DNA of 64,000 bases from an uncultured delta proteobacterium (GTDB taxonomy: Bacteria > Desulfobacterota > Binatia > UBA9968), in the NCBI GenBank assembly GCA_963737905.1, contig CAVTUQ010000002.1, positions 96,001-160,000 on the forward strand, written 5' to 3'. Shown here one piece after another: positions 503 to 34,679 of this stretch. Position 1 is the stretch's first letter. Each line of letters starts with the position of its first letter. Made by a program: the position numbers and the translations under genes. The notes beneath the pieces were generated by a model that was not told where the DNA came from, made no database searches, and saw nothing but the letters and a program-made list of their open reading frames with translations.

Positions 503-504
503 GG

Positions 505-2354: not shown

Positions 2355-2409
2355 GATGAGATCCAAGGTCAGGGATGGAGACTGCCATCCCTGACCTACC
2401 CTAGATGGG

Positions 2410-2862: not shown

Positions 2863-2879
2863 GCTGTCCTCCACTTATT

Positions 2880-5114: not shown

Positions 5115-6230
5115 TCAGTCTTTCAGCCGCAGGACATTGTGCGCTGTGATCGGGCGGTGAAAGCCCTTCAGTGTTAGCTCGCCTGCGGGCTCCACTTCCA
5201 CCAAATCTTCCACAGTCCCGAGCAGGCGTTGGGAAACCAGGATCTGACTGGGTTTGGCCTCACCGCAGAGGCGTGACGCAAGATTGGTGACGGTGCCGAT
5301 GGCGCCGTAATCCCAGCGGCCTTCAAATCCGATGCCGCCGATGGTGGCGTAGCCCTGCGCGATACCGACTCCCAAGTCGAGGTCATAACCTAATTTACGC
5401 CATTTTACGATCATCTCTTTCACTCGCTCCCGCATCGCCAGCGCCATCCCAATTGCCCGTTCCGCCGGATTGGGAACCGGCACCGGATCATTAAAAAAAA
5501 TCATCATGCCGTCGCCAGTGAATCGTTCCAAAGTCCCTTCGTGCTCCAGGATCAGCTTCCCCATTTCGGTATGGTACTCGCGCAGGACACCCATAACTTC
5601 TTCCGGCTCAGCGGTCTCGGCGAAAGCAGTGAAGCCCCGCAGGTCGAGAAAAACCACAGTGACCTCTCGCCGGTGGGTCTTCAGCGGGTCATCGGCGCCT
5701 CCGGCCACAATTAACTCGGCAAGCTGAGGCGAAAAGAAACGTTTTAGTCGCCCAAGTTGTTCAAGCTGAGTCACCTGATCTTCGACTCGCTGTTGCAGAG
5801 TCTTGTTCCAATCTGAAAGCTCGGCGGCTTGAACTTGAACGGTGTCATAAAGTTCTTTGATTCTAAGAAGCGACTTCGTTCGCGCGAGAAGCTCAGCCTG
5901 ATTGATCGGCTTCGTAAGAAAGTCATCAGCTCCAGCTTCGATCCCTTTGATTCGCTCTTCAGCGGGATCAAGCGCCGTCACCATCACCACGGGAAGAGTC
6001 CTCGTCTCCGGAATCTCGCGAATTTTACGGCACACCTCATAGCCGCTCATCTCGGGCATCACGACATCAAGAAGCACCAAATCGGGCTGCTCTCGCTCGA
6101 TCTTGTCTAGGGCTTCCTGCCCCGATACCGCGGTCACGACAGCGTATCCTTTGACGGTCAAAAGATCGGCCAGGAGCTTTACGTTCCTGGGAGTGTCATC
6201 GACAACAAGAATTTTGGCCGGTGATTTCAC
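5115..6230 (-). CDS. Response regulator receiver fused to a class III nucleotide cyclase (copy 1)
   Basis: N-terminal REC (VVDD, LLDVVMP, KP), coiled coil, cyclase motifs FLDLRGFT, ERFTGDG and NLASRL. Confidence 0.93.
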   Translation of the reverse strand: MKSPAKILVVDDTPRNVKLLADLLTVKGYAVVTAVSGQEALDKIEREQPDLVLLDVVMPEMSGYEVCRKIREIPETRTLPVVMVTALDPAEERIKGIEAGADDFLTKPINQAELLARTKSLLRIKELYDTVQVQAAELSDWNKTLQQRVEDQVTQLEQLGRLKRFFSPQLAELIVAGGADDPLKTHRREVTVVFLDLRGFTAFAETAEPEEVMGVLREYHTEMGKLILEHEGTLERFTGDGMMIFFNDPVPVPNPAERAIGMALAMRERVKEMIVKWRKLGYDLDLGVGIAQGYATIGGIGFEGRWDYGAIGTVTNLASRLCGEAKPSQILVSQRLLGTVEDLVEVEPAGELTLKGFHRPITAHNVLRLKD

Positions 6231-6243
6231 GTCTCAATCGCAG

Positions 6244-6316
6244 GTGAGGAGTAAGGGATGAAGGGTCAGGCGAGAAAAGCAGGGACGCCCTCACGACTTA
6301 CCCCTGACGCCTTACG
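6244..6316. repeat. Heptamer-periodic inverted repeat element (gtgagga/cctcacg type)
   Basis: Left arm gtgagga-gtaaggg-atgaagg-gtcaggc; right arm cctcacg-acttacc-cctgacg-ccttacg, which contains the stop codon of the receiver gene. Confidence 0.75.
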
Positions 6317-6692
6317 TTTTTGTCTCTCGAAGGACCCTTTCCACTTCCCCGAGAAAGTCCTTCAAGCTGATCGGCTTGGTCTGGTAGCCGTCAAACCCTT
6401 CAGCCAACATCGTTTTTCTATTGTGGGTCATGGCCGACGCGGTAATCGCGATGATAGGTATGCTCTGTGTTTGTGGCTTGGCCCGGAGTTGCTTCAGCGC
6501 GGTAATTCCGTCTATCCCCGGGAGCTGGATGTCCATGAGGATAAGAGCAGGCGATTTGTCCAGCGCGAGCTTTATTCCTTCTTCGGCCGTCTCAGCCTCT
6601 ATGGTCGTATAGCCCTTGACCTGAAGCACGTCTCGAACCAGCTTCCGGTTCTTCTCGTTATCTTCGATGATCAGTACCAGTTCGTTAGGCAT
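6312..6692 (-). CDS. Single-domain response regulator (DivK/CheY-like), copy 1
   Basis: IIEDN, ILMDIQLPGIDG, TKP. Confidence 0.92.
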   Translation of the reverse strand: MPNELVLIIEDNEKNRKLVRDVLQVKGYTTIEAETAEEGIKLALDKSPALILMDIQLPGIDGITALKQLRAKPQTQSIPIIAITASAMTHNRKTMLAEGFDGYQTKPISLKDFLGEVERVLRETKT

Positions 6693-6707
6693 AAAAGTTC
6701 GATGATC

Positions 6708-6800
6708 CTCCCGCAAAGGCGCAAAGACGCCAAGTTTAGAAGAAAAGATGGCTGATAATTCTAATAATAATTCTTCTAACACTTTGCGCCTTTGCGGGAG
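6708..6800. repeat. cgcaaag-type palindromic element with a perfect 19-bp inverted repeat
   Basis: ctcccgcaaaggcgcaaag (6708-6726) and ctttgcgcctttgcgggag (6782-6800) around an AT-rich spacer. Confidence 0.85.
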
Positions 6801-6806
6801 AAATTC

Positions 6807-9800
6807 TTATCTTATCGGAAGCGTGAACGTGAACGTCGATCCCCTTCCCATCTCGCTCTGCACCCAAATTTTGCCTTCGTGCAATTCGACGAATTTTCTG
6901 GTTAGACTCAACCCGAGCCCAGTTCCCTCGCGCTTCTGTGCATAGTTGGTCCCTACCTGGCGGAATTCCTCAAAGATCGCTTCCTGATCTTGCGGCGCGA
7001 TGCCGATGCCCGTGTCGGTGACCGAAATAATCACCGCACTGTCGCCCAGTGTCGCCTCGATCTTAATTCGCCCGCCCTCCGGCGTAAATTTCACCGCGTT
7101 GGACAGCAAGTTGACTAACACCTGCTTCACCTTGCGCTCGTCTCCGGTGAAGTCGCCAAGGCGGTCGTCGATGATACGTTCGAGCTTGATACCATGACGG
7201 CTGGCGCGCTCCCGTATGAGTAACAGCGCGTTCTCGATGGCGTCCGGCATGTAGAACGTCGTTACCTCCAACTCCATGCGTCCCGCCTCGATTTTGGACA
7301 GATCCAAGATGTCGTTGATGAGTGAAAGCAGGTGGCGGCCGGAGGAAAGAATGTCCTCGGTGTACTCAGCTTGCTTTTCATTTAGCTCGCCGAACAGTCT
7401 CTCCCCCAAGACTTCAGAGAAACCGATGATCGCATTGAGCGGCGTGCGCAGCTCATGCGAAACGTTGGCGAGAAATTCAGATTTATGACGGTTCGCCGTC
7501 TCCAGCTCTACACCCTTTGCTTCGATCTCGCGGAATAGCCGCGCATTTTGTATCGCCAATGCCGATTGAGTCGCAAAGGTCTGCAGAAGATTGACGACTT
7601 CCGGCGAAAAGCTGCCTGCTTCGCTTCGCCAGACCGTCAAGGCCCCCATGATTTGCTCCTCGCGGAGTAGCGGCACCGCCAAGGACAGACCGATAGCCGA
7701 GACGCGACAAGCATGGGCCGCATCGCGTAGTACCCGTAATTCCCGTTCCTCTAGAAGGTTCGCGACCTGAACTGGCGCGCGCACGTGTCGCCGCTTGACC
7801 GGTCGCGCCCTTGTCCCGGACGGACCGGGGTCGCCTGAAAGCGCTTGAACTATCTCCTCTTCCATGCGGTAACTGGCCCTGAGATGAAACTCTTGCGCAG
7901 TTTCATCGTACTCGTAGATAACGCCGCCATCGGTTCCGGAGAGTTGAACCGCGTGGCCAACGATGGTGCTAAGCACGGTCTGGAGATCGAGAGTAGAGCT
8001 GACCGCTTGTCCGACCTCCCCCAGCGCTTTCAGTTCTCCGACGGATCGCGCTAACTCGCTTCGTTCGTTGTTGTAGCTCTTGGAACAGGCGAACATTCTC
8101 GATGGCGATCACGGCTTGGTCGGCAAAGGTTTTGAGAAGCGCGATTTGCTTCTCGGTGAACGGTCGGACCTCCGTGCGGCGAATCAAGAATCGCTCCGAT
8201 CGGGACCCCCTCGCGCAGGAAGGCGTGGCTAGGCATCGTCCGAGTCGCCAATTTGTTGCTGATAATGGTCTGGCATCTGGAAACTCGCTTCTGAAGTTCT
8301 GCCGCAGGTCAAGGATGTGAACCGTTTGACGATCCATGACAGCTCGGCCTACCGCAGAACCGCGAGCTAAGGCCGATGAGCCGGTCCGAGTGGAATCGGC
8401 CCATATGCGCAACCGGCCGAAGAATGTCCCCATCAATACGATAGATCGAACCGTCAATGCCTCGCATAATCGCGCTGCGCATTTCCGCCACCGCATCCAG
8501 CACCGGCTGGATGTCGGTCGGCGAGCTAGCGATCACGCCCAGGATTTCACTCGTCGCAGTTTGTTGCTCCAACGCTTCGGTGAGTTGGCGGTTGCGATCC
8601 TCCAATTCCTTGAACAATCGTACATTCTCGATGGCTATCACCGCCTGATCGGCGAAGGTTTCTAGCAGCTTGATCTGCGCCGGTGTGAAGGGGCGTACTT
8701 CGATGCGACGTGCGTTCAATACTCCAATGAATTCTCCGCTGCTGACGAAGCGGAACGACCAATAAGGTGCGCCAGCCGCCGGTGGAACCCACCATTGGGA
8801 AATCGTTCTGCGCGCGGGCGTCTGGAATGTGAAGCGTGCCATGCTCGCGCATCCAGCGATACTGTGGCTCATCAATACTGATCTCGACGCGGCCAATGGG
8901 TATAGGACCAAAATGAGCCCGCGAAACCAACATGTTCCCCTCGTGGAGTCGCAGCACCACGTCATCAATCCCGCAAACCCGTGCGGCGCTCTCGACGATG
9001 GCGTCGAGCACCGGCTGCACGTCCGTGGGCGAGCGGCTGATGATGCCGAGGACCTCGCGGTTGCGGTCTGATGCTCCAGTGCCTCGCGCAACTCCGCGTT
9101 GCGTTCCTGAGTTCTTTGAACAGCCGGACGTTCTCGATAGCGATCACGGCCTGGTCGGCGAAGGTCTTCAGAAGCGCGATCTGCTTTCGGAAAACGGATG
9201 GACCTCGGTTCGGCGGATGAAGAATAGCCCCGACGGGCAGCGCCTTCGCGTAACAAGGGCACGGCCAGCGCGGTGCGAATGCGCTCCTGCTGCACCGCAT
9301 GCCACACTTCCGGAAATTCTTCTTCGCGTTCCGCCAGCATGTCGTGGATGTGCACGGTCTGGCGGTGCACAATCGCTCGTCCGGTGTTGGAACCGCCGCT
9401 GATCCGCCTCGTACTCCCGAGCGGAATGCCAATCCGGGCACGGTGCCGTAGCGCGCAACCTTGCGCATCATGTCGCCGTCGACGCGATAGATCTGTGCGT
9501 CTTGGGCGTCACATAGGCGCGCGGCACTTTCCGCCACAGCATCGAGCACGGGCTGAAGATCGGTGGGCGAGCTGGCAATCACGCGCAGAATCTCGCTCGT
9601 CGCGGTTTGTTGCTCCAGGGCCTCGGTGAGATCGCGGTTGCGGATTTCGGTAGTTCCTAAATAAGCGGGCGTTCTCGATCGCAATGACCGCTTGATCGGC
9701 AAAGGTCTGAAGCAGCGCCACTTGCTTCTGCGAGAATGGGGCGATGGCGGCGTGCCAAACTGTAATTGCGCCGATCGGATCAGCTCCCCCGGAGCATCGG

Positions 9801-12403
9801 CACGGATAACACGCTTCGGAAGCTCGCGATCTCACTGGCCGCATGCTCGGGATCATTCTCCACGTCCGGGACGTGGATGACCGCGCGATCGAAGATTGCT
9901 CGTGCCACGAACAGATGTCGGCCCGGCCGAGTTGGAAAAAGCTGCCGGGATAGCTCCAGGGCTGCTGGTGGATAGTTGTTATCGGCTACCATGTGGATGA
10001 GCTCGCCGTCGAATCGGTATACCGATCCGAAGAGAGCCCACAGAGTTTGACCGAATGTTCGGCGATGGTATCGAACACGGGCTGCAATTCGGTCGGCGCG
10101 CTGCTTATGACCGCGAGGATATCACTTGTCGCTGTCTGCTGTTCCAACGCCTCAGTCAGATCGCCGTTACGGACTTGCAGTTCTTGAAACAGCCGCACGT
10201 TCTCGATCGCGATCACCGCCTGGTCAGCGAAAGTGTGACCAGTGCGATCTGCTTTTCTGCAAAGGGCTCGGACTACACTCCTTCGGATCATGATCCCTCC
10301 GGAGTTGGCCCTCTCGTGAGCAGCGGGACTCCCAAAAGCGTTCTAACGAACCAATTCGGGCTCCCACTTCCCTAAATTAAATCCAGGATCAGTTAGGCAT
10401 CCGGGAAGATGAACTGGCCGTCGCTCAAGAGCGAACGGCCCATAACCGTACCGCGGTCATTAGGGGAGATAGGAGTTCGCTCGAAGAATTCATCTCAATT
10501 CGGGAGTCACGTTGTAAGCAACCGCCAGGCGAAACACGTCGTCATCGACCTATAGATATATCCCTGGTTAGCACCCAAAGGCGTCGCGGCGTTCTCGATC
10601 AGTGTTTCCAGAACGGGATGAAGGTCAAACGTCGAGCGGCTGATGACCTTGAGCACTTCGCTCGTGGCAGTCTGCTGCTCTAACGCCTCGGTGAGGTCGC
10701 GGTTCCGCGCTTCTGAGTTCCTTGAACAGCCGCACATTCTCGATGGCGATCACGGCCTGGTCGGCGAAGGTCTTAACCAATTCGATTTGTCGGTCAGTGA
10801 AAGGCTCGACAACGTCGCGCCAAATTGTGATTGTTCCGATTCCTGCTCCTTCTCGCAATAAAGGCACTGCCAACAACGTTCGCACCCCGGAGTCGGATGA
10901 CGTGGGAATAGTCTGCCGCGCTATAAATTGTGCATCGGCGGCGTGTAGTCGGGCGTCAAGGATGTGGATAGGTTTGCGGTCGAGGAAAGCTCGAGCGCCT
11001 GGAATGTTGGGACTTACTGGGAGGGGGTTGGACTGCAGGACCGCGATCCGTTCGGGACTTTCATTGTGATGAGCGACGACTCGCAAAAACTCTCCATCGA
11101 GTTGCCGGATATGGCCCTGTTTGGCCCCAGAAAGCTTCACAGCGTTGGCAACAAGGGTATCGAGTACTGGTTGGAGCTCAGTCGGTGAGGATGCGATAAC
11201 CCTCAAAACCTCACCGGTCGCCGTCTGTTGCTCCAGCGCTTCAGTCAGGTCGCGGTTCCGTTCCTGTAGTTCTTTGAAGAGCCGCACGTTCTCGATCGCG
11301 ATGACCGCTTGATCGGCAAAGGTTTCAAGCAGCTTTATCTGCTTGTCTGAGAAGGGGCGAACCTCTATCCGACGGATCATGATCGTTCCGATCGGCACAC
11401 TCTCACGCAGTAAAGGCGTGGCAAGCACGGTCCGAAGGCCGATCGTCTTAGCGAGCGACGCATTTGGGAACTCGTCCTCTGGTTCCGCTGCAAAGTCATG
11501 TATGTGAATGGTTTGTCTGTCAATGATGGCTCGACCGGATATCGAGCCACGGTCAATTGAGGTGGGACCTCCACCCAGCGACCCCGGCAGCGATCCATAA
11601 TTAGCCACCCTCTTCAAGGAATCACCATCGATGCGACTAATCAAAGCGTCGTCAGCCTCACACAGCCGCGCAGCACTTTCTGCGACTGCATTTAACACCG
11701 GCTGGATATCCGTCGGCGAGCTGGCGATGACGCCCAAAATTTCACTCGTTGCCGTTTGTTGCTCCAACGCTTCATTGAGTTCTTGAAACAGCCGCACATT
11801 CTCAATGGCGATGACCGCCTGGTCGGCAAAGGTTTCAAGCAAACGGATTTGCTGGTCCGAGAACGGACGAAGCTCCAGGCGACGAAGGTGGATTATCCCA
11901 AGCGGAATTCCATTTCGCAGCAGCGGCACAACTAGCACACTCTTCACGCCTGATGGAATTGCATAGATCTTGGCACCGGGGAACTCATTAATAGCTGCCT
12001 GAACGTCAGGGACATGGATTGTCCGCCGGTCGAGAATGGCTCGGCCGGGCACCGATCCGAAGTCGATGGATACATTTTCCCTTCCGGCCAAAGTTGGGAT
12101 AGAGCCAAAGTGAGAAACCGTTTGGTAGGTCTTACCATCGGTGCGCCGCACTAACACATCGTTGGCATCGCACAACCGCGCCACATTCTCGGCAATGGTG
12201 TCCATGACGGCCTGCAGATTAGCCGGAGCTTTGGCAATCATATGCAGGATGTCGCTAGCCGCAGCGAGTTGTTCCAGCGCCTCGTCGCGCTCCCGCTTTA
12301 GCTCCTCAGCTGCCTGTGGATGCTTGAGCTGAGACTTTTCAGATGAGACACGGGGCGGCTTTGCCCTTGTTTTCTTCGCGCCCTTTTTGGTGGTCGTTGC
12401 CAT
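6807..12403 (-). CDS. Giant cytoplasmic sensor histidine kinase HK1: ~9 tandem GAF domains + HisKA + HATPase (multiple frameshifts in this sequence)
   Basis: Nine TFA(D/T)Q(A/S)xxAIxNxRLF GAF-terminal motifs across consecutive ORF fragments; [11 protein letters not shown]-box; N, G1, F and G2 boxes; no transmembrane segment seen; ~1860 codons if joined. Confidence 0.85.
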
Positions 12404-12581
12404 AAAGCAGATCGAGACGGGACTGAACTGACTTTTACGCCAGGTGGTTGCAGGCGTCAAGGAAAGCTATGAAAGGGTTGCAACGCAACCGCTATGGGTT
12501 CGCTTTAGCGAGTCTACCGAATTTTTCGACGGGAAGACTACCTCACGAATCGCGCAACGTCCCAATTTCGGTCAAAAAAAG

Positions 12582-12610
12582 TTGACACTAAATGCCTCGG
12601 AGGATAAAAC
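12582..12610 (+). promoter_or_regulatory. Putative sigma70 promoter for the SEC-C gene
   Basis: TTGACA-17 bp-TAAAAC. Confidence 0.4.
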
Positions 12611-12752
12611 TCTCACAGATAACGGCCGGATTTTGACGAAAAAATAAAAAACACCGCTGAAGTTTGGGAGGTTCTGCCGCGCCGGTCGGTGCGAGATGTG
12701 CCAGAAGGATCAAATCCTTCTTACGAGGCGATGCAGCGGGGGAGAGACGCTC

Positions 12753-14117
12753 ATGAAACCACAGAGGAACGATCCCTGCCCTTGCGGGAGCGGCAAGAAA
12801 TACAAAAAGTGCTGCCTACCCAAGGAAAGAGACCAACAAGCCGGCGATTCCCCCTGGAGCCATGCCGGCAAAGTGCACCGCATTCAGCACGCCGACGATT
12901 ATCCGGTGGAGGCCTGCTATCTCAATGCTGATTGGAAAGGGCAGGGATTGGCCCGCATCGTGGTTACTCGGAGCCAAGAGAACGGGAAAATCATGGTAGC
13001 AGCGTTCCTGGTCGATATTTTCTGCCTGGGAGTCAAAAACGCCTTTTGTAATGAGGGCCTCGGCAGAAGGCAGATTGAGGCTCAACTTCTGCCTGGATAC
13101 TACCAGAATGAGGAACCCACGAGAGTCGGGATCAACTATGTCAAGGAGATCATCTACGGCGCGGTAGATTACGCCAGAAGTCTAGGATTTGAACCTCATC
13201 CTGATTTTGAACTTTCCCGCCAAGTGCTTGGATCTGAAGAGATTGGCAGGACCCGCAACCTGACCTTTGGCGGGCCGGAGGGAAAGCCGTTTTACGTGGC
13301 CGGCCCCGATGATGATACCGCAACGGTCCTGCAAAAGCTTCGCAAGAGACTAGGGGAAGACGGATTTAACTTTATTGCGCCGGAAGAGGACTGGGAGGAT
13401 ATAAAGGAAGACGAAGACCAGCAGCCCGGACTGGTGAGTCGGGTATTGGGTCAAGCGACGGAGCTTCTGGACGCTGACCTCAAGAGATACAAGCACCTTA
13501 GACAAATTGGGATGCGCTTAATGGGTGCGATCACAAGGTCGCTACCGAGGGAATTGATCCTCCAGGCTGCAAGAGATTTGCGGCTGTTGGATAAAAAGGG
13601 GAGGATCGTCTGCGATACGGAAGATGAAACGTCATTCATCATGGATCGCGCTATCCACGACATACCCTGGCCGGAACAGAGATACATAGAAATCTATCAC
13701 CAAGACGAGGCCTCAAAGCTATCTCTAGATCAGCAGGCGTATCTAGAGGCAAACATACAGCCGGTTTTTTCCTTGTACGAAGTTTTGAAGGTATCCCGCG
13801 GTCGCGGTGTATGGCTAGTGAATCTATTTTCGCCGGAAGAATTTTTTCTCATGGATACTGGATTAGGAACGACAGCCGAAAAAGGATGCCTTTTGGCCAG
13901 CAGGGTAATCCGCCTCAACGGAATCTGTTTCACCTCCGGGGTGACTATGCCTTTTGGCCCCGAACACAAAAGGCGCCTCACGCACCACTTTACTTCCCTG
14001 GCAGATGACAAAGAAGGAGCCGGAAGCTGGGAGAGGCTGATGCAGCGTCATGCTCCATATTTCTTTATTGAGTTTAAGAAGACCGGTGTTGCCGTCGAGT
14101 TTACTACGGTCACTTAA
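12753..14117 (+). CDS. SEC-C motif (zinc-binding) protein of unknown function
   Basis: RNDPCPCGSGKKYKKCC at the N-terminus; two regions separated by an acidic linker. Confidence 0.85.
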   Translation: MKPQRNDPCPCGSGKKYKKCCLPKERDQQAGDSPWSHAGKVHRIQHADDYPVEACYLNADWKGQGLARIVVTRSQENGKIMVAAFLVDIFCLGVKNAFCNEGLGRRQIEAQLLPGYYQNEEPTRVGINYVKEIIYGAVDYARSLGFEPHPDFELSRQVLGSEEIGRTRNLTFGGPEGKPFYVAGPDDDTATVLQKLRKRLGEDGFNFIAPEEDWEDIKEDEDQQPGLVSRVLGQATELLDADLKRYKHLRQIGMRLMGAITRSLPRELILQAARDLRLLDKKGRIVCDTEDETSFIMDRAIHDIPWPEQRYIEIYHQDEASKLSLDQQAYLEANIQPVFSLYEVLKVSRGRGVWLVNLFSPEEFFLMDTGLGTTAEKGCLLASRVIRLNGICFTSGVTMPFGPEHKRRLTHHFTSLADDKEGAGSWERLMQRHAPYFFIEFKKTGVAVEFTTVT

Positions 14118-14743
14118 GCCACGTGCCGTACGGACCAGGATTTTCTTTTTGCTCTTTCGGGCTTACTGTGAAGAAGCATTCACCCGAGGGGGGTCCAATC
14201 GCTCAAGCCGTTAGAACTGAAAGCACGGGCTGACAACCTGAGCGTTTTTAAAAGCCCACGATCTCTGCGAGCGGTTGGGGCTCTTCCGATATTGATGATA
14301 AAAGGAAGTCCTGGTTCAGCGTTTACGTTCTTTACCTGAACGAATTCCTTGTTTCTCTGGGGACCCCGGCGCCAACCTCGCAAAGACTCCAGTCAACCTC
14401 GTCTTTATTTTGGCTTTCCGAAACTTGCCATGTTTTGCGTGAGATGATTCTTCTCCGACTTCGGATCTATTTCCCGCCAACTCGCCAAGATTTGAAGGCC
14501 ATGCCTTTTGTCGAGCGAATCTTCGTTCCGCACACGCGCTGCGTTACTTAATTCCCTTGCAGTAAAACAGTAAAAACTATAGGTCTTCAGGCCTTCCTGT
14601 GAACCAGGACTCGGAGATTGCGCCGCGGATCCGCCAAAGGATGGATCAGCGACAGTTTTTAAGGCTGAGGCGCGGAGGACCCAGAGTAAACGAGTTCTTG
14701 GTAAAAAAATTTTTCTCCTCGCAAACTCTGTCTATGCTTGAAA

Positions 14744-14932
14744 GTTTTCGCCGCTTGCGTAAATTTGCCGATATATGAAACATCTCGGATTCGGATATTT
14801 CTCCCGCCATGCCGCGAAGAACGCCAAGTTTTGATAACTATTATTTCTCTTTCTTTGCAGCCTTTGCGTGTTTTCGGGAAAATATTCCGCTTCTTTGGGT
14901 TGCGGCGCAGCCGCGCTGTGCCTCTGCGGTGA
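14744..14932. repeat. Composite cgccaag/ctttgcg-type repeat cluster
   Basis: 14744-14828 resembles 16443-16528; ctttgcagcctttgcg arm; gcggc-N3-gccgc hairpin at ~14900. Confidence 0.65.
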
Positions 14933-15083
14933 ACACTTCTTCACAGAAAAACCGGAATAACCAAAACTATAAACCGCTACAAAAAGCAGCGAGTGTGAAG
15001 AGGAGAGGCCTAAGTATCGCATTGAGCCAACGGGAAGACGCCCTCGCTCAGCCTCCAAAGAGAGATGTTCGAACGAACTTGTC

Positions 15084-16216
15084 TTAGCTTTTCAGTCGGA
15101 GAATATTGTGGGCGGTGACCGGCCGGTGAAATCCTTTCAGCGTTAGTTCCCCTACAGGTTCCACTTCCACCAGCTCTTCCACAGTCCCCAGCAGCCGTTG
15201 GGAAACCAAGATCTGACTTGGTTTGGCCTCGCCGCAAAGGCGTGAGGCCAGATTAGTGACGGTGCCGATGGCACCGTAATCCCACCGACCTTCAAATCCG
15301 ATTCCGCCGATGGTCGCGTAGCCCTGCGCGATACCGACACCGAAATCGAGCTCGTAGCCTAGCTTACGCCATTTGCCGTCAGCTCTACCACACTCTCCCG
15401 CATCGCAAGCGCCATGCGGATCGCTCGCTCCGCCGGGTTCGGAACCGACACTGGATCATTAAAAAAAATCATCATGCCGTCGCCAGTGAATCGTTCCAAA
15501 GTCCCTTCGTGTTCCAGAATCAGCTTGCCCATTGCAGCATGGTACTCGCGGAGAACTCCCATTACTTCCTCGGGCTCGGAGGTCTCGGCAAAGGCGGTAA
15601 AGCCGCGCAGGTCGAGAAAAACCACCGTGATCTCTCGCCGGTGGGTCTTGAGCGGATCCTCGGTGCCTCCGGAGACGATCAGCTCTGCAAGTTGAGGCGA
15701 GAAAAAACGTTTTAGCCGACTGAGTCTGTCAAGCTGAGCCACTTGCTCCTTTACACGTTCTTCCAGACGCTTGTTCCACTCCTCCAGCTCGTTGCGGAGC
15801 CGAACCTCCTGGTCGCGCAAACGCTTTTTCTCCAGGCACGCGCCGATGCGCGCCCGCAAGAGGACCGGGTCGAATGGCTTGGGCAGATAATCCTCGGCCC
15901 CGAGCTCGATACAACGGACCACGCTGCCGATCTCGTCTAGAGCGGACAGTACAATGACCGGAATGTCGCGTAGTGCATGATCCGACTTCATCTGTTCCAG
16001 AACCTGGTAACCGTTCATCTCCGGCATCATGACATCGAGCAGGACAAGGTCGTACGGATCTGCCTTGATCGTCTCTAACCCAAGTCGCCCGTTTTCCGCA
16101 ACGGCGGTTTTATGCCCGTCCGCCTCCAAAAGCGCGCACAGCATATCCCGGTTCATCTCGATGTCGTCGACGACAAGAACGGAGCGGGATTGAATGTTGG
16201 CATTTTTCTCAGTCAC
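15084..16216 (-). CDS. Response regulator receiver fused to a class III nucleotide cyclase (copy 2), one-base frameshift at ~15372
   Basis: REC + cyclase. Restoring one A in GCAAATGG gives KWRKLGY as in copy 1 and reads through to TAA at 15084-15086. Confidence 0.9.
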
Positions 16217-16261
16217 GATGTGTGCTTCTTGCAGTTTCGCCCATCTGGCTAGGAGACTTTC

Positions 16262-16740
16262 TTAACCGCAAAGAACGCAAAGTTCGCATAGGAAAAATTC
16301 TTTTGCATTTCTTTGCAATTGTCCGACGACCGTTCAACATTCGCCGAAACACCTTCTCACCACGAAGATCAGGAAGACCACGAAGGGCGGGTTTGAAAAG
16401 CACCTCTATTTTTTTGCGTCCTTTGCACTTTATGTTTAAGCGTTTTCGCAGCTTGCGCAAATTTTCCAGTGCCCCGTGGCTATCCAAAACTGGGATTTGC
16501 TCGTGCCAAGACGCGAAGCACGCCAAGTGGCGGGCCAGGCCCGTCATCCCGAGCGGAGACGAGGGATCTGAGAAAGATTTCTCCCTTCGGTCGAAATGAC
16601 AATACGTTTTTCTTTGCGGCCTTTGCGCGAGATATTCCCAGTTCTTCTTTTGTGTTCTTTGCGCCCTTTGCGGTTAATTCTCCGGTTCCGAATCGACTTT
16701 GGTTGCGGCTTTTGCCGCGCTAGGTTCTTTGCGGTTAAAT
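16262..16740. repeat. Cluster of 8-9-nt-periodic cgcaaag/ctttgcg repeats with a nested REP-like element (16542-16600)
   Basis: aaccgcaaagaacgcaaagttcgcatag, caccacgaagatcaggaagaccacgaag, ctttgcggcctttgcgcgaga, ctttgcgccctttgcggttaa; cgtcatcccgag...gggatct...agatttc...gaaatgac. Confidence 0.75.
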
Positions 16741-16754
16741 TCCTCTCCGTCCTT

Positions 16755-16787
16755 AATCTAAAATCGGCAATCTAAAATCCAAAATCA
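16755..16787. repeat. Heptamer tandem repeat (aatc-NNN)x5 overlapping a stop codon
   Basis: aatctaa-aatcggc-aatctaa-aatccaa-aatca. Confidence 0.75.
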
Positions 16788-17150
16788 TAGGAACTCCTGG
16801 ATTTTGGCCAGCAGCTCGGCTGGATCAAACGGCTTCGTTACATAGGCATCGCAGCCGGCCTCGGCCGCCTTAATGTCATCGCCGCTGAGCGCATAGGAGG
16901 TCACTGCGATGATGGGGATATGGCGGAGCGCGGCATTGGCTTTGATCCGCCGCGTCACCTCGTATCCGTCAATGCCGGGAAGCTGGATATCCATAAGGAT
17001 CAGATCCGGCACCTGCGCCTCCGCCGACGTCAACCCTTCCTCACCCGTGACCGCCTCAATCAATTCATAACCAACGCTTGTGAGAAGGTCGCGCAAGAGG
17101 CGCCGATTTTCTTCGTGGTCCTCGATAACCAATATCCGCTTTCCAGCCAT
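16785..17150 (-). CDS. Single-domain response regulator (DivK/CheY-like), copy 2
   Basis: VIEDH, ILMDIQLPGIDG, VTSYALSGD, TKPF. Confidence 0.92.
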   Translation of the reverse strand: MAGKRILVIEDHEENRRLLRDLLTSVGYELIEAVTGEEGLTSAEAQVPDLILMDIQLPGIDGYEVTRRIKANAALRHIPIIAVTSYALSGDDIKAAEAGCDAYVTKPFDPAELLAKIQEFL

Positions 17151-17174
17151 AGCAAATCTCAACTTTAAAGACTT

Positions 17175-17382
17175 TTAACCGCAAAGATCGCAAAGTTCGC
17201 ATAGAATTTTTTTGCGTTCTATGCGTTCTTTGTGGTTAGCCTCTTGGTTTGCTCCTCTTCCCTTGCGCCTTTGCGCGAGATTGATTCTTTCTTTTTTATC
17301 CCGCCAAGACGCCAAGCTCGCAAAGAAAATCTCCTTAACTAATTTTCCTAACTTGGCGTACTTTGCGCCTTTGCGCGAGAAA
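17175..17382. repeat. Two adjacent cgcaaag/cgccaag-type palindromic elements
   Basis: aaccgcaaagatcgcaaagttcgcatag...tttgcgttctatgcgttctttgtggtt; cccgccaagacgccaagctcgcaaag...cttggcgtactttgcgcctttgcgcgag. Confidence 0.75.
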
Positions 17383-20300
17383 ACTCTTCTCCGTACGGTA
17401 GCGTGAAAGTAAACTTACTCCCTTTCCCCACTTCGCTTTCCACCCAGATCTTTCCTCCGTGTAATTCGACGATTCTTTTTGCGATGGCGAGCCCGAGCCC
17501 CGTGCCCCCCTTCTTCTGCGTGATGGAGCCCTCGGCCTGTCGGAACTCGTCGAAGATTTTTTCGCGATCCGTCTCCGGGATCCCTGGCCCGGTATCCGAC
17601 ACCGACACCAGCAAATTCCCGTTCTCCGCTGCCACGTCGATCCGAACCTCCCCCGAGTCCGTGAACTTGATCGCGTTGCCAACGAGATTCAACAACACTT
17701 GCGCAATTCGCCGCTCGTCCCCTAGCGCGGCAGGCAAGTCGGCAGGAACTGTGACCTTCAGCGGAAGATTCTTCTCCGCGGCCAGAGATTGCGTGCCGGA
17801 GACGACGGCCTGAATCACGTCTTTAATCGAATAAGGGTTGATCGCCAAAGTTAGTTGGCCGGCCTCGATCTTGGAGAAATCGAGCACGTCGTTGATCAGG
17901 CCGAGCAGATGACGGCCGCTTTTGTCGATTCGTCCGTGGACGTCTCTAACCTTCTCGGGCAGCTCGCCGTACACGTTCATCAGGAGCATCCGCGTATAGC
18001 CCAGGACGGCATTCATCGGCGTGCGCAGCTCATGGCTCATACTCGCCAAAAACTGCGATTTGTACTTGCTCGCCAGCTCCAGTTGATGTCCCTTTTCCTC
18101 GATCTCTCGAAAGAGCCGTGCATTTTGTATCGCCAAGGCCGATTGAGTCGCGAAGGTCTGAAGAAGTGGACGACTTCCGGCGAAAAGCTGCCGGCCTGCT
18201 TCCGCCACACCGTCAACGCCCCCATGATGCGCCCTTCTCGGAGAAGCGGAACCGCCAGAACAGATCGATATCCGAGCCGAGCCGCGATAGGCCGGAGTCG
18301 CGTAGCCCCGAGTTCCTGCTCCTCTAGCAGATTAACGACTTGAACTGGAGCCCGAGTGATTGTCGCCCGCCCGGTCGCGCCCTCTCCCTGTCGTATCGGC
18401 GCTGCCCGAATGGCTTCGACTAGTTCTTCTTCCATACGGTGGCTAGCCCTGAGACGAAATTCCTGCCCACCTTCGTCGTACTCGTAGATAACTCCACTGT
18501 TGGTACCTGAAAGCTGGACCGCATGGCCAACGATGGTGCTGAGCACGGTCTGGAGATCGAGAGTAGAGCTGACCGCCTGACCGACCTCGCCTAACGCTCT
18601 AAGCTCGCCGACCGACTGTGCCAGCTCGCGGGTCCGCGCCTCCAGTTCCTGGAACAGCCGCACGTTCTCGATTGCGATCACCGCCTGGTCGGCGAAGGTT
18701 TCTGAGCAGTTTGATCTGCTTGTCGGTGAAGGGACGGACCTCCATGCGGCGAATATGAATCGCCCCGATGGGTAGTTCCTTCGCGCAGCAATGGCGTGGC
18801 AAGATCGTCCGAACGCCCACGTGCTGGCAAAGCTGCAGACTCCGGAAAGTCATCTCTCTGCCGCGCAAGTCATCGGAATGTGAATTGTTCGTCGGTCAAT
18901 TATGGCTCGCGCCGTTGGTAGAGCCACGGTCGATTGGAGAATTCCCGCAGGTCCCACCCGGCAAGGCCCGTAATTAGCCACGATCTGAAGCATGTCACCA
19001 TCAACGCGATAAATCACCGCGTCAGTTGCATCGCACAGCCGCGCCGCATTCTCGGCGACCACATCCAGCACCGGCTGAATGTCAGTCGGCGAGCTGGCGA
19101 TGACGCGGAGGATTTCGCTCGTAGCCGTCTGCTGCTCCAACGCTTCAGTGAGATCGCGATTGCGGACTTGCAATTCTTGGAAAAGCCGCACGTTTTCGAT
19201 CGCGATCACGGCCTGGTCGGCGAAGGTCTTGAGTAGCGCGATCTGCTTGTCGGTGAAAGGGTTGACTTCCGCGCGACGAATCAGAATGGCCCCGATGGCG
19301 ACCCCCTCACGGAGCAATGGGGTCGCCAGTCTCGTCTGCAGGCCGAATTGTTTCTGATAATCCATGCTCACCGTGAATTCGTCCTGCGACGCCGCTTCCA
19401 AGTCATGGACATGGATTGTCTCTCGATCAAGCACTGCTCGGGCAGGCACCGAGCCGCGGTCCATAGGTCCTGCTTCTCCGATTGGTCCTGTAGGTAGCGT
19501 CCCATATTTAGCCACTCGCCGAAGGTTGCTACCATCTACACGGAAAATAACTGCGAGGTCCCCACCGCAAACACGTGCGGCACTCTCGGCCACTACATTC
19601 AGCACCGGCTGGATATCTGTCGGCGAACTGGCGATGACACCCAAGATTTCACTCGTAGCCGTTTGCTGCTCCAACGACTCCTTGAGTTCTCGGAACAGCC
19701 GCACGTTCTCGATGGCGATCACCGCTTGATCGGCGAAGGTTTCGAGCAGTTTGATCTGCGCCGGGGTGAAGGGGCGCACCTCGGTGCGACGCGCGGTCAA
19801 TACTCCAATGAGTTCCCCCTGCTGACGAAGGGGAGCGGCCAAGAAGGTGCGGAAGTTGCCGGCGGAACCCAACATCGGGAAATCGTTCTGCGCGCGGACG
19901 TCGGGAATGTGGAGCGCGCCGTGCTCGCGCATCCAGCCATACTGTGGCTCATCAATACTGATCTCGGGGCGGTCAATAGGTATGGGACCAAAATGAGCCC
20001 GCGGAACCATGGCGTTCCCCTCGCGGAGTCGCAGCACCACGTCATCAATCCCACAAACCCGCGCGGCGCTCTCGACGATGGCATCCAGCACCGGCTGCAC
20101 ATCCGTTGGCGAGCGGCTGATGATGCCGAGCACCTCAGCCGTTGCAGTCTGATGCTCCAGGGCTTCCCGCAATTCAGCGTTCCGCTCTTGGATATCCTTA
20201 AACAGCCGGACGTTCTCGATGGCGATGACCGCTTGGTCGGCGAAGGTTTTGAGAAGCGCGATCTGTTTGTCGGTGAACGGCCGGACTTCTTTTCGATGGA

Positions 20301-23300
20301 TTACAATCGCGCCGATCAAATCATTCTCTTTTAGCAAGGGAACGGCTAAGACACTCCGCATCCCCTGGTCACGATAAGGCCCGGTGCGATAAGCGGTCAG
20401 TTCTGGATCGGCAAGAACATCCGGTACATGGACCAACCGCCGTTCCAATGCGACCCGGCGTACCGCGCTCTCTCGCCCTGGACGAAAAGGCGTACCCAGC
20501 GCATACGCCTCCATCGCAGGTGCCACATTGTATAATGCAACGCCTCGAAGGGTCTCGCCATCAAATCTAAACATCGCACCATTTTGCGCCTCGCAGAGGC
20601 GGACTGCATTGTCGAGGATCGTCTGAAAGACGGGCTGCAAATCAGTTGGCGAACTGGCGATCACGCCAAGAATTTCGCTTGTCGCCGTTTGCTGTTCCAA
20701 CGCTCTCGGTACTGGTTCCTTCAGCTCTTGGAACAATCGCACGTTTTCGATGGCGATGACGGCTTGGTCGGCGAAAGTTTCGAGCAGTTTGATCTGCACC
20801 GGGGTAAAGGGGCGCACTTCAGTGCGACGCGTAAACAGCGATCCGATAAGTTCCCCTTGCTGGCGAAGGGGGACGGACAAGAAGGTGCGCCAGCCGCTGC
20901 GGGAATCAACCGTCGGGAAGTGGAAGTCTTTCCGTTCGCGGGCGTCAGGAATATGGAGTGTGCCGTGCTCGCGTAACCAGCCGTACAATGGTGCATCCAC
21001 ATCGGTCTCGACGCGGAGAACGGGTATTGGGCCAAAATGAGCCCGCGCAACCATTGCGTTCCCCTCGCGGAGTCGCAGCACCACGTCATCAATCCCACAA
21101 ACCCGGGCAGCGCTTTCAACAATCGCATCGAGCACCGGCTGGACATCGGTGGGTGACCGGCTGATGATGCCGAGCACTTCGGATGTGGCTGTTTGATGCT
21201 CCAGGGCCTCTCGCAATTCAGCGTTGCGCGCTTCGAGTTCCTTGAAGCAGCCGCACATTCTCGATAGCGATCACGGCTTGGTCGGCGAAGGTTGTGACAA
21301 GCTCGATCTGTCTCTCGGTAAATGGCCTGACTAGCATCGGACCAGATCGAGATCGGCCGATGCGATTCGCCTCGCGAAGCAGCGGAACGACTAGCAGGGT
21401 GCGCGCTCCGAACGTGCTGGAGTCGGCCTTAGACTCCGGAATCTCAGTTCGATGTCCGCAATATAGATCGGCTTGCGCTCCAGGAACGCCTGACCCGACG
21501 ACGTATCACGCCCGGGCCGCACTGACGCTTCGACTGCATAGCTGATCACGCCTTTGGACGCCGACGTCTGAAATAGGCAACAACTTGGAGAAACTCCCCA
21601 TCGAACTGGCGAATATGAGCCTTGCTTCGCGCCGGCAGAGCCTCACCGCATTTTCTACGAACCGTATCGAGCACCGGTTGAAGTATCAGTCGGCGAACTC
21701 GCAATGACTCTTAAGCACTTCGCTCGTCGCTGTCTGCTGCTCTAGAGCTTCCGTAAGATCGCGGTTGCGGACTTGCAATTCTTGGAAAAGCCGCACGTTT
21801 TCGATCGCGATCACGGCCTGATCGGCGAACGTCGTAACTAGCTCAATTTGCTTCTCTGTGAAAGGCTCGAACTACAGTCCTTCGAATCAAGATTACGCCA
21901 ATGAGGGTGCCCTCTCTGAGCATCGGGACTCCGAGAGTCGTCCGAGTGCCTCCCAGAGTGTGAGCTTCCGCAAGTTGATACTCAGGATCCGCGACGATGT
22001 CGTGAATATGAATGACACGGTGTTCAAGGGCGACCCGCGCCACGGTGGTTCCTCGCCCCGGTCGAATCGGGTTTTGCTCGAGGAAATCCTTGAATTCAGG
22101 CGGAACATTGTAAGCGACAGCCCGCCGCAGCACTTCCCCATCGACTCGCAAAATAAACCCGGAATTCGCACCGCACAATCTTGTTGCATTCTCGATGAGT
22201 GTTTCCAGCACCGGCTGCAAGGTCGAAAGTTGAGCGGCTGATGACTTTCAAGCACTTCGCTGGTCGCGGTCTGCTGCTCTAGCGCTTCGCTCAGGTCACG
22301 ATTTCGTGATTGGAGTTCCTGAAACAACCGGACGTTCTCAATGGCGATGACGGCTTGATCGGCAAAGGTTTCAAGCAGCTTTATCTGCTTGTCTGAGAAG
22401 GGGCGAACCTCTATCCGACGGATCATGATCGTTCCGATCGGCACACTCTCACGCAGTAAAGGCGTGGCAAGCACGGTCCGAAGGCCGATCGTCTTAGCGA
22501 GCGACGCATTTGGGAACTCGTCCTCTGGTTCCGCTGCAAAGTCATGTATGTGAATGGTTTGTCTGTCAATGATGGCTCGACCGGATATCGAGCCACGGTC
22601 AATTGAGGCGGGACCCCCACCCAGCGACCCCGGCAGCGATCCATAATTAGCCACCCTCTTCAAGGAATCACCATCGATGCGACTAATCAAAGCGTCGTCA
22701 GCCTCACACAACCGCGCAGCACTTTCTGCGACCGCATTTAACACCGGCTGGATATCCGTCGGCGAGCTGGCAATGACGCCCAAGATTTCGCTCGTCGCCG
22801 TTTGCTGTTCCAACGCCTCCTTGAGCTCTTGAAACAGGCGGACGTTCTCGATGGCAATCACCGCTTGATCGGCGAAGGTTTCGAGTAATTTGATCTGCGC
22901 CGGGGTGAAGGGGCGCACCTCGATGCGACGCGCGCCTAGTCCTCCAATGAGTTCCCCCTGCTGACGAAGGGGCACTACTAATAAGGTGCGGTAGTTGCTG
23001 AAGGGTGCCAACATTGGGAAATCATTCTGCGCGCGGACATCGGGAATGTGGAGCGAGCCATGCTCGCGCATCCAGTGATACCGTGGTTCATCAATACTCA
23101 TCTCGATTTGGGCAACGGGTATGGGACCAAAATGAGCCCGCGCAATCATAGTGTTCCGCTCGTGGAGTCGCAGCACCACGTCATCGATCCCACAAACCCG
23201 GGCGGCGCTCTCGACGATGGCGTTAAGCACCGGCTGCACGTCCGTCGGCGAGCGGCTGATGATGCCGAGCACCTCGGCAGTCGCCGTCTGATGCTCCAGG

Positions 23301-25533
23301 GCCTCGCGCAATTCTGCGTTGCGCTCCTGGAGTTCTTTGAACAACCGCACGTTTTCTATGGCGATCACGGCCTGGTCAGCGAAGGTTTCAAGGAGTTTGA
23401 TCTGTTTGTCTGTGAACGGCCGCACCTCGTTCCGACGGATGGTAATTGCCCCGATAGGAGTACCTTCACGCATAAGGGGAACCGCCAGCCCGGTCCGAAT
23501 ACCCAGACTCTTTAAGCTATGCCAGACATCCGCATAGTCCGCTTCGCGCTCTGCCAACATGTCATGGACGTGGACCGGCTGCTGGTTGAGTATGGCGCGG
23601 CCGCTCAACGAACCACGCCGAATTGGCCGTGTCTCGCCGACGGCGAGCACCGGTGAGACGACCCCGTAGTTCGCCACTTTCCGCGCCATGTCACCTTCGA
23701 CGCGCCAGATTTGAGCATCGACGGAGCCACAACTCGAGCAGCGTTTTCAGCAACAGCAGCCAACACCGGCTGAATATCCGTCGGAGAGCTGGCGATGACA
23801 CGAAGTATCTCACTCGTCGCGGTCTGCTGTTCGAGCGCCTCGGTAAGATCGCGGTTGCGAACCTGTAGTTCGTTCAGCAGTCGGGTATTCTCCATCGCGA
23901 TCACGGCCTGATCGGCAAAGGTAGTTACCAAATCGATCTGCTTGTCGGTAAAGGGCCGTGCTTCCGTTCGACTGAGCGTGATGACGCCGAGCAGGTCATG
24001 TCCCCTAAGCAGTGGCACACCCAGCGCTGCCCGGTATGGTTGCACTTGCCACGCCTGATAGGTGTACTCCGGATCCGACAAAATATCCGGTATGTGAATG
24101 GTCTGTCGTTCAAGCGCAGCTCTCGCAGTGACGCTGTAACGTCCGGGCGTGAGCGGGTTGCGCTCGACAAATTCTCGCAGTTCCGCAGAAACGTTGTAGG
24201 TGACCGCTAGCCGCAATACTCCGTCTTCGAGCCGCAGAATGAACGCCTGCTCCGCCGCGCACAGTCTCGCCGCGTTCTCAACCAGTGTTTCAAGGACCGG
24301 CTGCAGGTCAAAGGCCGATTGACTGATGACTTTGAGCACTTCACTGGTCGCCGTCTGTTGCTCCAACGCTTCGGTGAGATCGCGGTTGCGAACTTGTAGT
24401 TCGTTGAACAAGCGCACGTTTTCGATGGCAATGACCGCCTGATCAGCAAAGGTCTGAAGTAGAGCGACTTGCTTGTCAGAAAAGGGACGAACCTCTAATC
24501 GGCGAATAATAATCGCCCCGAGGGGAATTCCCTCGCGCAGTAACGGGGTGGCAAGCACGGTACGATAACCAAAGCGGCGTGCCAAAGCGATGCCGACTGG
24601 GAATTCATCTTCCGACTCTGCCGCGAGATCATGAATGTGGATCGTTTGCCTGTCGATGACGGAACGAGCAAGTACCGAGCCACGCTGGAGCGGCATTTTA
24701 TCAGCCTCGGTAAGGCCAGGGATATGTCCGTACTGAGCGACCAAGGGAAGGACATCGCCGTCAATGCGCCGGATAAGAGCGTCGCTTGCACCGCATAATC
24801 GAGCTGCATTTTCCGCCACAGTATCCAGCACCTGCTGAATGTCAGTCGGTGAACTAGCAATAACACCGAGAATTTCGCTCGTCGCCGTTTGTTGTTCCAA
24901 TGATTCAGTGAGCTCCTGAAACAGCCGAACATTCTCAATGGCGATGACAGCCTGGTCGGCGAAGGTCTTCAGAAGTCGAATTTGGCCGTCTGTGAACGGC
25001 TTAACCTCGAGGCGCCGGAGCCCTATCAACCCGATCGCTTGCCCCTTCCAGAGGAGAGGCGTGTACACAAGGGTGCGGAGCCCGATTGGCTGTACCCGGG
25101 CGCGGGTTGGCGCAAACATCGGATCTTCTTCAGCCAGAATGTCGTGGATATGCACGGTCTCACCGGACGTAAGAACATGCCGGTTCAGTGGTTCATCGGC
25201 GATCGGGAGCGCGACAATCGTAATCGGGATTGGACCGACATGGGCCATCAGTCGGAGCATGTTACCGTCGACCAGGCGCACTGAGGCATCCTCCGCGCTA
25301 CATAGACGCGCGGTGCTCTCGACGATCGCGTCGAGAACCGATTGAAGTCTGTCGGCGAGCTCGCGATCATCCGCAGGATGTCGCTAGCCGCAGCGAGTTG
25401 TTCCAGCGCTTCGTCGCGCTCGCGCTTTAACTCCTCAGTTGCCTGTGGATACTTGAGACTGAGACTTTTTCGGCAGGGCACGGGGTTGCTTTGTCGTTGA
25501 TTTTTTCGAGCCTCTTTTGGTGGTCGTTGCCAT
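17348..25533 (-). CDS. Giant cytoplasmic sensor histidine kinase HK2: ~14 tandem GAF domains + HisKA + HATPase (multiple frameshifts in this sequence)
   Basis: Fourteen GAF-terminal motifs at ~500-550 bp spacing; ATG 25533 gives MATTTKRG (HK1 starts MATTTKKG); [11 protein letters not shown]-box and G-boxes; ~2700 codons if joined. Confidence 0.85.
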
Positions 25534-33334: not shown

Positions 33335-33335
33335 G

Positions 33336-34679
<1,344 letters not shown>

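Follow-up and report, generated by a model that had tools for sequence, protein, structure and literature searches.

Two paralogous modules of a GAF-array kinase, a free receiver and a receiver-cyclase in an uncultured delta proteobacterium: known parts in a widespread, uncharacterised combination

Introduction

What does a bacterium do with soluble histidine kinases that carry nine or fourteen copies of a single sensor domain, and do two such kinases, each with its own stand-alone receiver (REC) and its own receiver fused to a class III nucleotidyl cyclase, serve two separate pathways or one network? In this article, I will discuss this question for a 64,000-nucleotide stretch of an uncultured delta proteobacterium (the window; G000:C2:96001-160000, to whose positions all coordinates without a contig name refer), where G000 is a metagenome-assembled genome of 6.7 Mb in 46 contigs that is 87.5% complete with 6.7% contamination. 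Between positions 5115 and 25533 lie two co-oriented minus-strand modules, each consisting of a soluble HisKA/HATPase_c kinase, a stand-alone receiver and a receiver-class III cyclase. I consider it likely that these are two paralogous and functional three-gene two-component modules with a wiring like that of DivK and PleD, and that the frame breaks in the assembled genes are consensus errors. Its building blocks are familiar, as both receiver-controlled class III cyclases and kinases that sense through GAF domains are known; what sets this widespread and uncharacterised variant apart is the conserved combination of three genes, with 9-18 GAF domains, a free receiver like DivK and a cyclase whose substrate pocket is unusual. 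The unit of GAF-array kinase, receiver and receiver-cyclase is undescribed in the literature that was searched, which left out most subscription journals.

Two modules of one design

In module 1, kinase 1 (6807-12403, minus strand, as are all genes of both modules) begins at an ATG at 12403 that aligns with the start ATG of kinase 2 at 25533, and carries nine GAF domains followed by HisKA and HATPase_c, as placed by Pfam on its frame pieces, by a motif map and by a frame map from a hidden Markov model (HMM) of the GAF unit; its catalytic core occupies 6807-7500 (HisKA PF00512, E 1.5e-24; HATPase_c PF02518, E 7.6e-34). Behind it come the DivK-like stand-alone receiver REC1 (6312-6782; Pfam Response_reg, E 1.1e-23), which likely starts at the ATG at 6692 to give a protein of ~126 amino acids (relatives align from residue ~28-36 of the long form), and cyclase 1 (5115-6230), an intact protein of 371 amino acids in which a PleD-like REC (Response_reg, E 5.8e-32) is followed by a coiled-coil linker and a class III cyclase domain (Guanylate_cyc, E 7.3e-22). 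Module 2 has the same order, with kinase 2 (17348-25533; 14 GAF domains, then HisKA and HATPase_c, with a catalytic core at 17348-18100, HisKA PF00512 at E 6.5e-21 and HATPase_c PF02518 at E 8.6e-36), the PleD/DivK-like stand-alone receiver REC2 (16785-17162; Response_reg, E 3.8e-29; likely ATG 17150) and cyclase 2 (15084-16216), for which Pfam recovers Response_reg and Guanylate_cyc across its two frame pieces. An earlier note, made from the letters of this DNA alone, had described two co-oriented modules with this gene order, and Pfam found each element that it named in its place, recovering HisKA, HATPase_c, GAF, Guanylate_cyc and Response_reg throughout.

All four receivers match PF00072 (E 1.1e-23 to 5.8e-32) and keep the acidic pair, the phospho-acceptor Asp, the Thr/Ser and the Lys when their translations are read by eye, and the SHELRTP H-box is present in both kinases. 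A Kyte-Doolittle scan found no 19-residue window with a mean of 1.6 or more in either kinase, so both can be taken as soluble, as the note had it, and its statement that the locus holds no DNA-binding output gene agrees with the finding of none within 5115-25533; the FUR gene at 110-502 lies outside the modules, as part of another cluster, with rubrerythrin.

The two modules have diverged unevenly. The two H-box strings quoted in the note are both present and the DHp regions around them do differ, with 36 of 70 residues identical, while the two kinase cores compared by tblastn share 49%. Between the cyclase proteins, identity rises from the REC domain (46/116, 40%) through the linker (38/63, 60%) to the catalytic domain (168/183, 92%), which bears out the claim of different receivers on near-identical cyclase domains. 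Their 3' DNA is only 83.7% identical over 693 nucleotides, so the likeness of the catalytic domains reflects purifying selection and not very recent conversion.

A conserved three-gene unit

Cyclase 1 was used to search one genome per species, which gave 605 matched stretches, 576 of them encoding a relative, and the best 80 of these 576 were analysed; 77 of these loci have an alignment that reaches the catalytic domain and 58 have at least 3 kb of upstream sequence. A kinase core and a free receiver stand upstream on the same strand at 54 of the 58 loci, a kinase only at one, and neither at three (L063, L069 and L073), which means that the order kinase, receiver, cyclase is conserved well beyond this genome. 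The record titles of the relatives name Methylomirabilota/Rokubacteria, Nitrospira, Syntrophobacteraceae, Burkholderiales, other Proteobacteria, Actinomycetota, Chloroflexota and others, and the closest cyclase relatives among the best 80 are labelled as metagenome-assembled genomes of Syntrophobacteraceae or delta proteobacterium. The three-gene unit belongs to a family of soil bacteria, is common, spans many phyla and occurs in several copies within single genomes. GAF units of the repeat family number 0-18 per locus within the 10-kb flank, and of the 38 arrays that have two or more units, 35 are contained in a single open reading frame (ORF), the longest single-ORF arrays being those of L061 (3327 amino acids, 18 units) and L058 (3060 amino acids, 14 units), while at L078 eight units are spread over seven ORFs.

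Judged by the company that their genes keep in relatives, modules 1 and 2 are separate conserved lineages. The N-terminal piece of cyclase 2 is matched at E <= 1e-40 in 23 of 31 same-order genomes, a tally that includes G000 and two unpublished genomes (G006 and G012) used for this count only. In family-level relatives, cyclase-2-like genes (82-88%) stand behind REC2-like genes (83-88%), and cyclase-1-like genes (80-89%) behind REC1-like genes (72-88%), the receiver matching the cyclase type in all eight of the relatives' loci that were read. A kinase-2-like core (83-85%) was found in two of the three module-2-type loci, these two being both of the loci that reach that far; only the kinase-proximal 414 residues are clearly orthologous within the kinases (75.5% to L001 by tblastn).

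Arrays of GAF units

The earlier note had counted ~9 and ~14 GAF domains, and the numbers stand. The unit-end motif FADQAVIA[IM]EN occurs in 8 copies in kinase 1 and 13 copies in kinase 2 by motif scan, and one divergent, kinase-proximal GAF per kinase brings the totals to 9 and 14; Pfam GAF, GAF_2 and GAF_3 profiles match the kinase frame pieces at E values down to 4.8e-67, and a single HisKA/HATPase goes with each array. At the DNA level, identity between the units of one array is 65-92%. One pair, the unit at 11842-11208 in kinase 1 and that at 22888-22254 in kinase 2, is 92.4% identical without gaps over 635 nucleotides, where other unit pairs reach 65-77%, which suggests a recent exchange of units between the arrays. 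That pair is also the best non-self match in the genome, in which no second near-identical copy of a module was found.

Across the 23 intact units of the genome, conservation is found at the ends, while the middles, which hold the pocket region, vary, and one Cys is found in 21 of the 23. GAF domains of the PDE/CyaB type that bind cyclic nucleotide monophosphates (cNMP) carry an NKFDE motif, whereas an NKFDE-like motif (N[KR].[DE][EDQ]) occurs in 0 of the 23 intact units, so the idea in the note that the cyclase product feeds back as cNMP on the GAF domains is left without support. An AlphaFold model of a di-GAF unit (predicted local distance difference test score, pLDDT, 90.2) has two GAF folds on a continuous connecting helix of 53 residues, and its top Foldseek matches are the tandem GAFs of CyaB2 (1ykd) and PDE2A (1mc0, 3ibj) at E ~2e-16. 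Those proteins likewise string their GAFs on a long connecting helix, but sequence identity is 13-19% and they have two units in place of the 9-18 seen here; by sequence, a three-GAF piece has no match to a solved structure better than E 2.7e-6. The predicted fold fits a rod that could pass a conformational change to the kinase. A further parallel is the poly-HAMP group III hybrid kinases, which are described in one report as soluble kinases with a long N-terminal array of one repeated module and no membrane anchor (PMC7643160), although their repeat is HAMP and not GAF, they are hybrid where the kinases here are non-hybrid, and the partner here is a cyclase. The arrays would offer an accessible system for studying how signals are transmitted and integrated along many copies of one sensor domain.

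Frame breaks in the assembled genes

Neither assembled kinase is a single ORF. The ORF lists give at least six pieces per array, and all the breaks are indels, with no nonsense codon needed to explain any of them. When a 177-position HMM built from the 23 intact units was mapped on three frames, domains ran on from one frame into another in mid-unit, and a minimum-switch computation, in which stop read-through was forbidden and HMM anchors were honoured, gave a minimum of 12 frame switches for kinase 1, confined to ~10700-8000 (manual reading of 10720-10300 puts the true number higher than this computed minimum), and at least 12 in kinase 2, of which 11 were computed and one lies just after the start codon. 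Cyclase 2 has one break near 15400, where DNA alignment sets AAA against AAAA in module 1. Of ten sites inspected by eye, six look like the loss of one nucleotide, in five cases within a short run, three like the gain of one nucleotide away from any run, and one could not be assigned. Gene sizes elsewhere in the window are ordinary, and in the genome otherwise ORFs of at least 200 amino acids cover 78% of the sequence, 53 ORFs exceed 1000 amino acids, and rpoB and rpoC are open over 1379 and 1381 amino acids.

Independent assemblies speak to some of these sites. Logan contigs from four soil-metagenome runs of three studies were compared with 5560-25550, and among the matches listed, single-nucleotide indels relative to the window were found at 9056 (at least three contigs, two runs), 18703 (at least five contigs, three runs), 21868 (at least two contigs) and 22217/22221/22250 (at least seven contig records), all exactly at breaks that had already been predicted from the frames. 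Contig pieces over 9240-9568 and 9744-10061 have two gaps each, matching two predicted breaks each, and a piece over 10301-10680 has 13 gaps. For cyclase 2, orthologues in three family-level relatives (G004, G013 and G014) have open frames of 393-408 amino acids and align to cyclase 1 without interruption. In a tblastn comparison with intact orthologous kinases (L001, L007, L017, L058 and L016), the repeats produced so many overlapping alignments that the breaks could not be located.

I regard it as quite probable that the breaks are errors of the assembly consensus in repeated DNA and not the marks of pseudogenes. The competing view, that kinases 1 and 2 and cyclase 2 are true pseudogenes, redundant paralogs decaying by slippage indels, draws on the ~25 breaks in ~14 kb where rpoB and rpoC have none in 8 kb, on other GAF arrays of the genome that are intact over 1175-1861 amino acids, on several indels outside homopolymers, and on the high redundancy of a genome with at least twelve kinase cores. 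Decay would have had to spare all 21 unit-end motifs and both catalytic cores and to produce no nonsense codon, and in kinase 1 to strike one 2.7-kb stretch while leaving the 1.7 kb upstream and the 2.9 kb downstream untouched; the contigs and orthologues lack the indels at each site open to comparison; and like breakage recurs in the arrays C1a, C3, C26 and C36 of this genome, in the C31 cyclase and in the L078 array, which points to a technical cause tied to repeats. Pseudogenes are, on this balance, distinctly unlikely. That the arrays are several smaller separate genes, or that the assembly has expanded a shorter array, is extremely unlikely: the many pieces in the ORF lists and the contigs that join different units at the conserved motif (20244 to 18703, for example, in three runs) would suit it, but the unit-HMM alignments continue mid-domain across the frame changes, each array has one HisKA/HATPase, its units are not identical copies, single ORFs with 9-18 units exist at 10 other loci, and the sides of the joints, ~31 nucleotides within the conserved motif, are such as graph artefacts would give.

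Several points nevertheless weigh against consensus errors in functional modules. The contigs without the indels differ from the window by 3-8% there and so are relatives and not the source strain, contig pieces with zero mismatches cover unbroken stretches only, and only four site clusters of the ~25 breaks are directly contradicted by contigs; breaks are far denser in these two loci than anywhere else in the genome, several fall outside homopolymers, and real decay of redundant paralogs would look alike. No measured phosphotransfer, cyclase activity or ligand was found for any family member. The operon structure of both modules is read solely from gene spacing and synteny, as scans for promoters and terminators gave counts no higher than in shuffled sequence, and the 568-nucleotide, repeat-rich spacer before cyclase 2 may hold a promoter of its own. 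If consensus errors are indeed the cause, repeat arrays of this kind are indel-error hot spots in metagenome assemblies, and automatic annotation will lead to their being called pseudogenes.

A few related observations belong here. The contigs of three runs that join different GAF units at the unit-end motif were treated as graph or repeat artefacts and rejected as structural variants, and assembly-graph artefacts they probably are, while array-length polymorphism among strains could also produce them. Joints from 14830/14841 to 16607, which would delete cyclase 2, were likewise rejected as a structural variant, since their sides are only 21 nucleotides long and lie inside short intergenic repeats. 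At C31:6678-7221 (minus strand) a class III cyclase domain with the canonical Lys at its substrate position is split in two frames (375 + 109 amino acids), and in the window the same-strand ORFs at 32645-33523 and 33336-34655 (minus) overlap by 188 nucleotides, which may be a further frame break outside repeats.

Wiring of kinase and receivers

How, then, would the three proteins be connected? DivK (1m5t) is the only solved structure matched by REC1 at E <= 1e-18 (E 4.2e-23), REC2 matches PleD at E 7.3e-34 and DivK at E 5.1e-30, and the REC of cyclase 1 matches domain D1 of PleD with 122 bits. Membership of the PleD family was considered and rejected: this REC scores 186.6 bits against the PleD model NF007135, under its cut-off of 474, covers the first 144 profile positions only, and comes without a second REC and without a GGDEF domain. 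The core of kinase 1 scores 222.9 bits against the DivJ model, with a cut-off of 1000. In Caulobacter and Agrobacterium, DivK and the diguanylate cyclase PleD are both substrates of the kinases DivJ, PleC and PdhS, and divK and pleD share one operon (PMC7003649). By analogy, the closest counterpart of the modules is this branched DivJ/PleC-DivK-PleD pathway, with a class III cyclase replacing GGDEF. Both place a single-domain receiver and a receiver-fused nucleotide cyclase in adjacent genes, and several kinases per receiver pair are probable here too, where seven kinases (kinase 1 and six others) share a DHp type. They differ in the output domain, in the two receivers of PleD where the cyclases here have one, in the kinase gene that here lies in the same cluster, and in the sensors, which here are soluble GAF arrays; the DivJ and PleD scores are so far under the cut-offs that the modules are not orthologues, and no link to the cell cycle is implied.

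The earlier note had spoken of phosphorelays. In a true multistep relay the stand-alone receiver of each module would hand its phosphoryl group to an unlinked Hpt protein and this to the cyclase receiver, and the single-domain receiver that stands between kinase and cyclase in 54 of the 58 loci would find a role. I think this very unlikely, since the kinases are non-hybrid and end at HATPase_c without a fused receiver, no Hpt-like ORF occurs in either module (5115-25533; the genome outside the modules was not searched for Hpt), and both receivers are DivK/PleD-like, such pairs being phosphorylated in parallel by the same kinases in the model system (PMC7003649). Gene content argues that the wiring is plain kinase-to-receiver, with two receivers per kinase.

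With such parallel wiring, a signal-driven conformational change would run along the GAF rod and set the autophosphorylation of the kinase, which would pass its phosphoryl group to both the stand-alone and the cyclase-fused receiver. Class III cyclases need dimerisation, and phosphorylation of the cyclase receiver would bring this about and turn on the synthesis of cyclic nucleotide, while the small receiver would either compete as a phosphate sink or, like DivK, modulate the kinase by feedback. A related arrangement exists within a single protein, the cyanobacterial CyaC of Spirulina and Anabaena, which combines receiver, GAF, kinase, receiver and class III cyclase in one polypeptide. There too a GAF-sensed histidine kinase controls a class III cyclase through a receiver, but CyaC is one protein with one or two GAFs where the modules have three genes and 9-14 GAFs, and the free receiver is extra here.

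The cyclase and its product

The catalytic domain of cyclase 1 aligns best with that of Pseudomonas aeruginosa CyaB (3r5g; E 4.5e-38, 134 bits over 185 residues), the closest solved structure, and in this alignment keeps both metal-binding Asp residues (in FLDLRGFT and GDG) and the Asn/Arg transition-state pair (in TNLASRL); the same three strings are found in cyclase 2. These are the hallmarks of the class III nucleotidyl cyclases (PF00211). The residues that specify the substrate are another matter, as they form an Arg/Gly pair, with Arg in place of Lys and Gly in place of Thr/Asp. CyaB, whose regulatory domains also differ, has Lys and Thr at positions that in this family hold Arg or His and Gly or Ala, respectively, and CyaC (1wc0/1wc1), a weaker match at E 1.6e-19, has Lys/Thr as well. 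The pair was compared with the two canonical types and fits neither: an adenylate cyclase would have Lys with Asp or Thr, and a guanylate cyclase of the Cya2 type Glu with Gly, Cys or Ser, of which the second position (Gly) does match Cya2 (2w01) and the first, Arg in place of Glu, does not.

This is not a peculiarity of one gene. When the first substrate position was read with a regular expression, 69 of the best 80 relatives were readable: 49 carry Arg there, 14 carry His and none carries Lys or Glu, and four readings of Ile may be mis-hits on an upstream motif, as in L005 and L006; the second position among the best 80 is mostly Gly or Ala, with 18 pairs incomplete. In the genome itself, the receiver-cyclase paralog on contig C37 has Arg/Gly too, and the other cyclases have Lys or Gln. 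One class III enzyme of Xanthomonas whose residues are non-canonical has been reported to act as a guanylate cyclase (PMC3770947), and with this precedent and a pair of neither type the product of the cyclases cannot be called; it is probably cAMP or cGMP. A scan with NCBIfam found no family specific to the cyclase or to the GAF array, only generic two-component models below cut-off. The note had the modules converge on one second messenger, and half of this can be kept: with catalytic domains 92% identical and the same pocket residues it is plausible that cyclases 1 and 2 make the same product, whereas the Arg/Gly pair does not allow that messenger to be named. A bolder picture, which I put forward tentatively and consider unlikely, is that of an unstudied soil-bacterial family with fast-evolving rods of up to 18 GAF domains as sensors, in which many kinases converge on few receivers in a DivK/PleD-like branched pathway and an Arg(His)/Gly(Ala) cyclase makes a product other than cAMP, either cGMP or a nucleotide new to two-component control. 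The family would provide an accessible system for learning what non-canonical class III specificity residues mean for the choice of product.

A network of kinases

To speak of twin modules understates the network, which comprises at least twelve kinases and four receiver-cyclases. Paralogous kinase cores behind GAF arrays number at least 12 in the genome, and twelve of them were compared; the at least ten outside the window lie at C1:68388-73814, C1:87960-92837, C3:42014-47698, C10:10380-13256, C26:53994-67964, C26:163735-165926, C28:222682-224487, C36:16866-23440 and C37:137684-144168, some of them intact (1861 and 1175 amino acids), some frame-split, and several without an adjacent receiver. 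In six of these kinases (two on C1, one on C10, two on C26 and one on C28) the DHp region agrees with that of kinase 1 at 62-64 of 70 residues, with a near-invariant first helix, and five of the six have no receiver gene downstream, the sixth (C26:59228) having one. No near match to the DHp of kinase 2 was found among the twelve kinase cores compared. The residues of the DHp helix determine the choice of partner by a kinase, so that REC1 and cyclase 1 are probably shared by several of the GAF-array kinases; in terms of the proposed mechanism, kinase 1 and the six kinases with a like DHp would feed this pair, and module 2 would be private. The insulation of two modules that the earlier note had proposed accordingly survives in part: the two are separately co-inherited lineages with different DHp regions and receivers, and module 2 looks private on its DHp sequence, whereas module 1, whose DHp is shared by six other kinases, does not look insulated.

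On the output side there are 17 cyclase-domain matches in the genome and at least four receiver-cyclases, the two in the window and those at C37:142550 and C26:164886, of which the latter stands directly behind a kinase and a receiver and the former is separated from them by 3.6 kb. Nine cNMP-binding domains are encoded elsewhere in the genome and could be receptors for the cyclase product.

Neighbouring genes and repeats

The only other gene within 5115-25533 lies between the modules and divergent from kinase 1, at 12696-14117 on the plus strand, and encodes a protein of 473 amino acids in which nothing but an N-terminal SEC-C/SWIM-type zinc motif is recognisable. Short direct and inverted repeats of the CGCAAAG / CTTTGCG type fill the spacers of module 2 and lie at 14797-14837, 16262-16291, 16408-16435, 16496-16527, 16608-16680, 17175-17233, 17263-17280, 17294-17325 and 17363-17380, with the pair 16262-16291 and 17175-17204 being 97% identical, and a translated form of the repeat recurs before REC1 (~6700-6800); they look like a family of small intergenic repeat elements.

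The flanks of the locus hold a solute-binding protein gene and a rubrerythrin/DUF3501/Fe-S/FUR cluster. In the latter, genes for a FUR-family regulator, a DUF3501 protein, a CCG/4Fe-4S protein and a rubrerythrin stand in a row at 110-2874 (minus strand), downstream of module 1, and probably form an oxidative-stress or iron cluster. Some 6 kb upstream of the start of kinase 2, at 31553-32077 (minus strand), lies the gene of a small protein that combines a zinc-ribbon N-terminus with a PilZ domain and may be a receptor for cyclic di-GMP.

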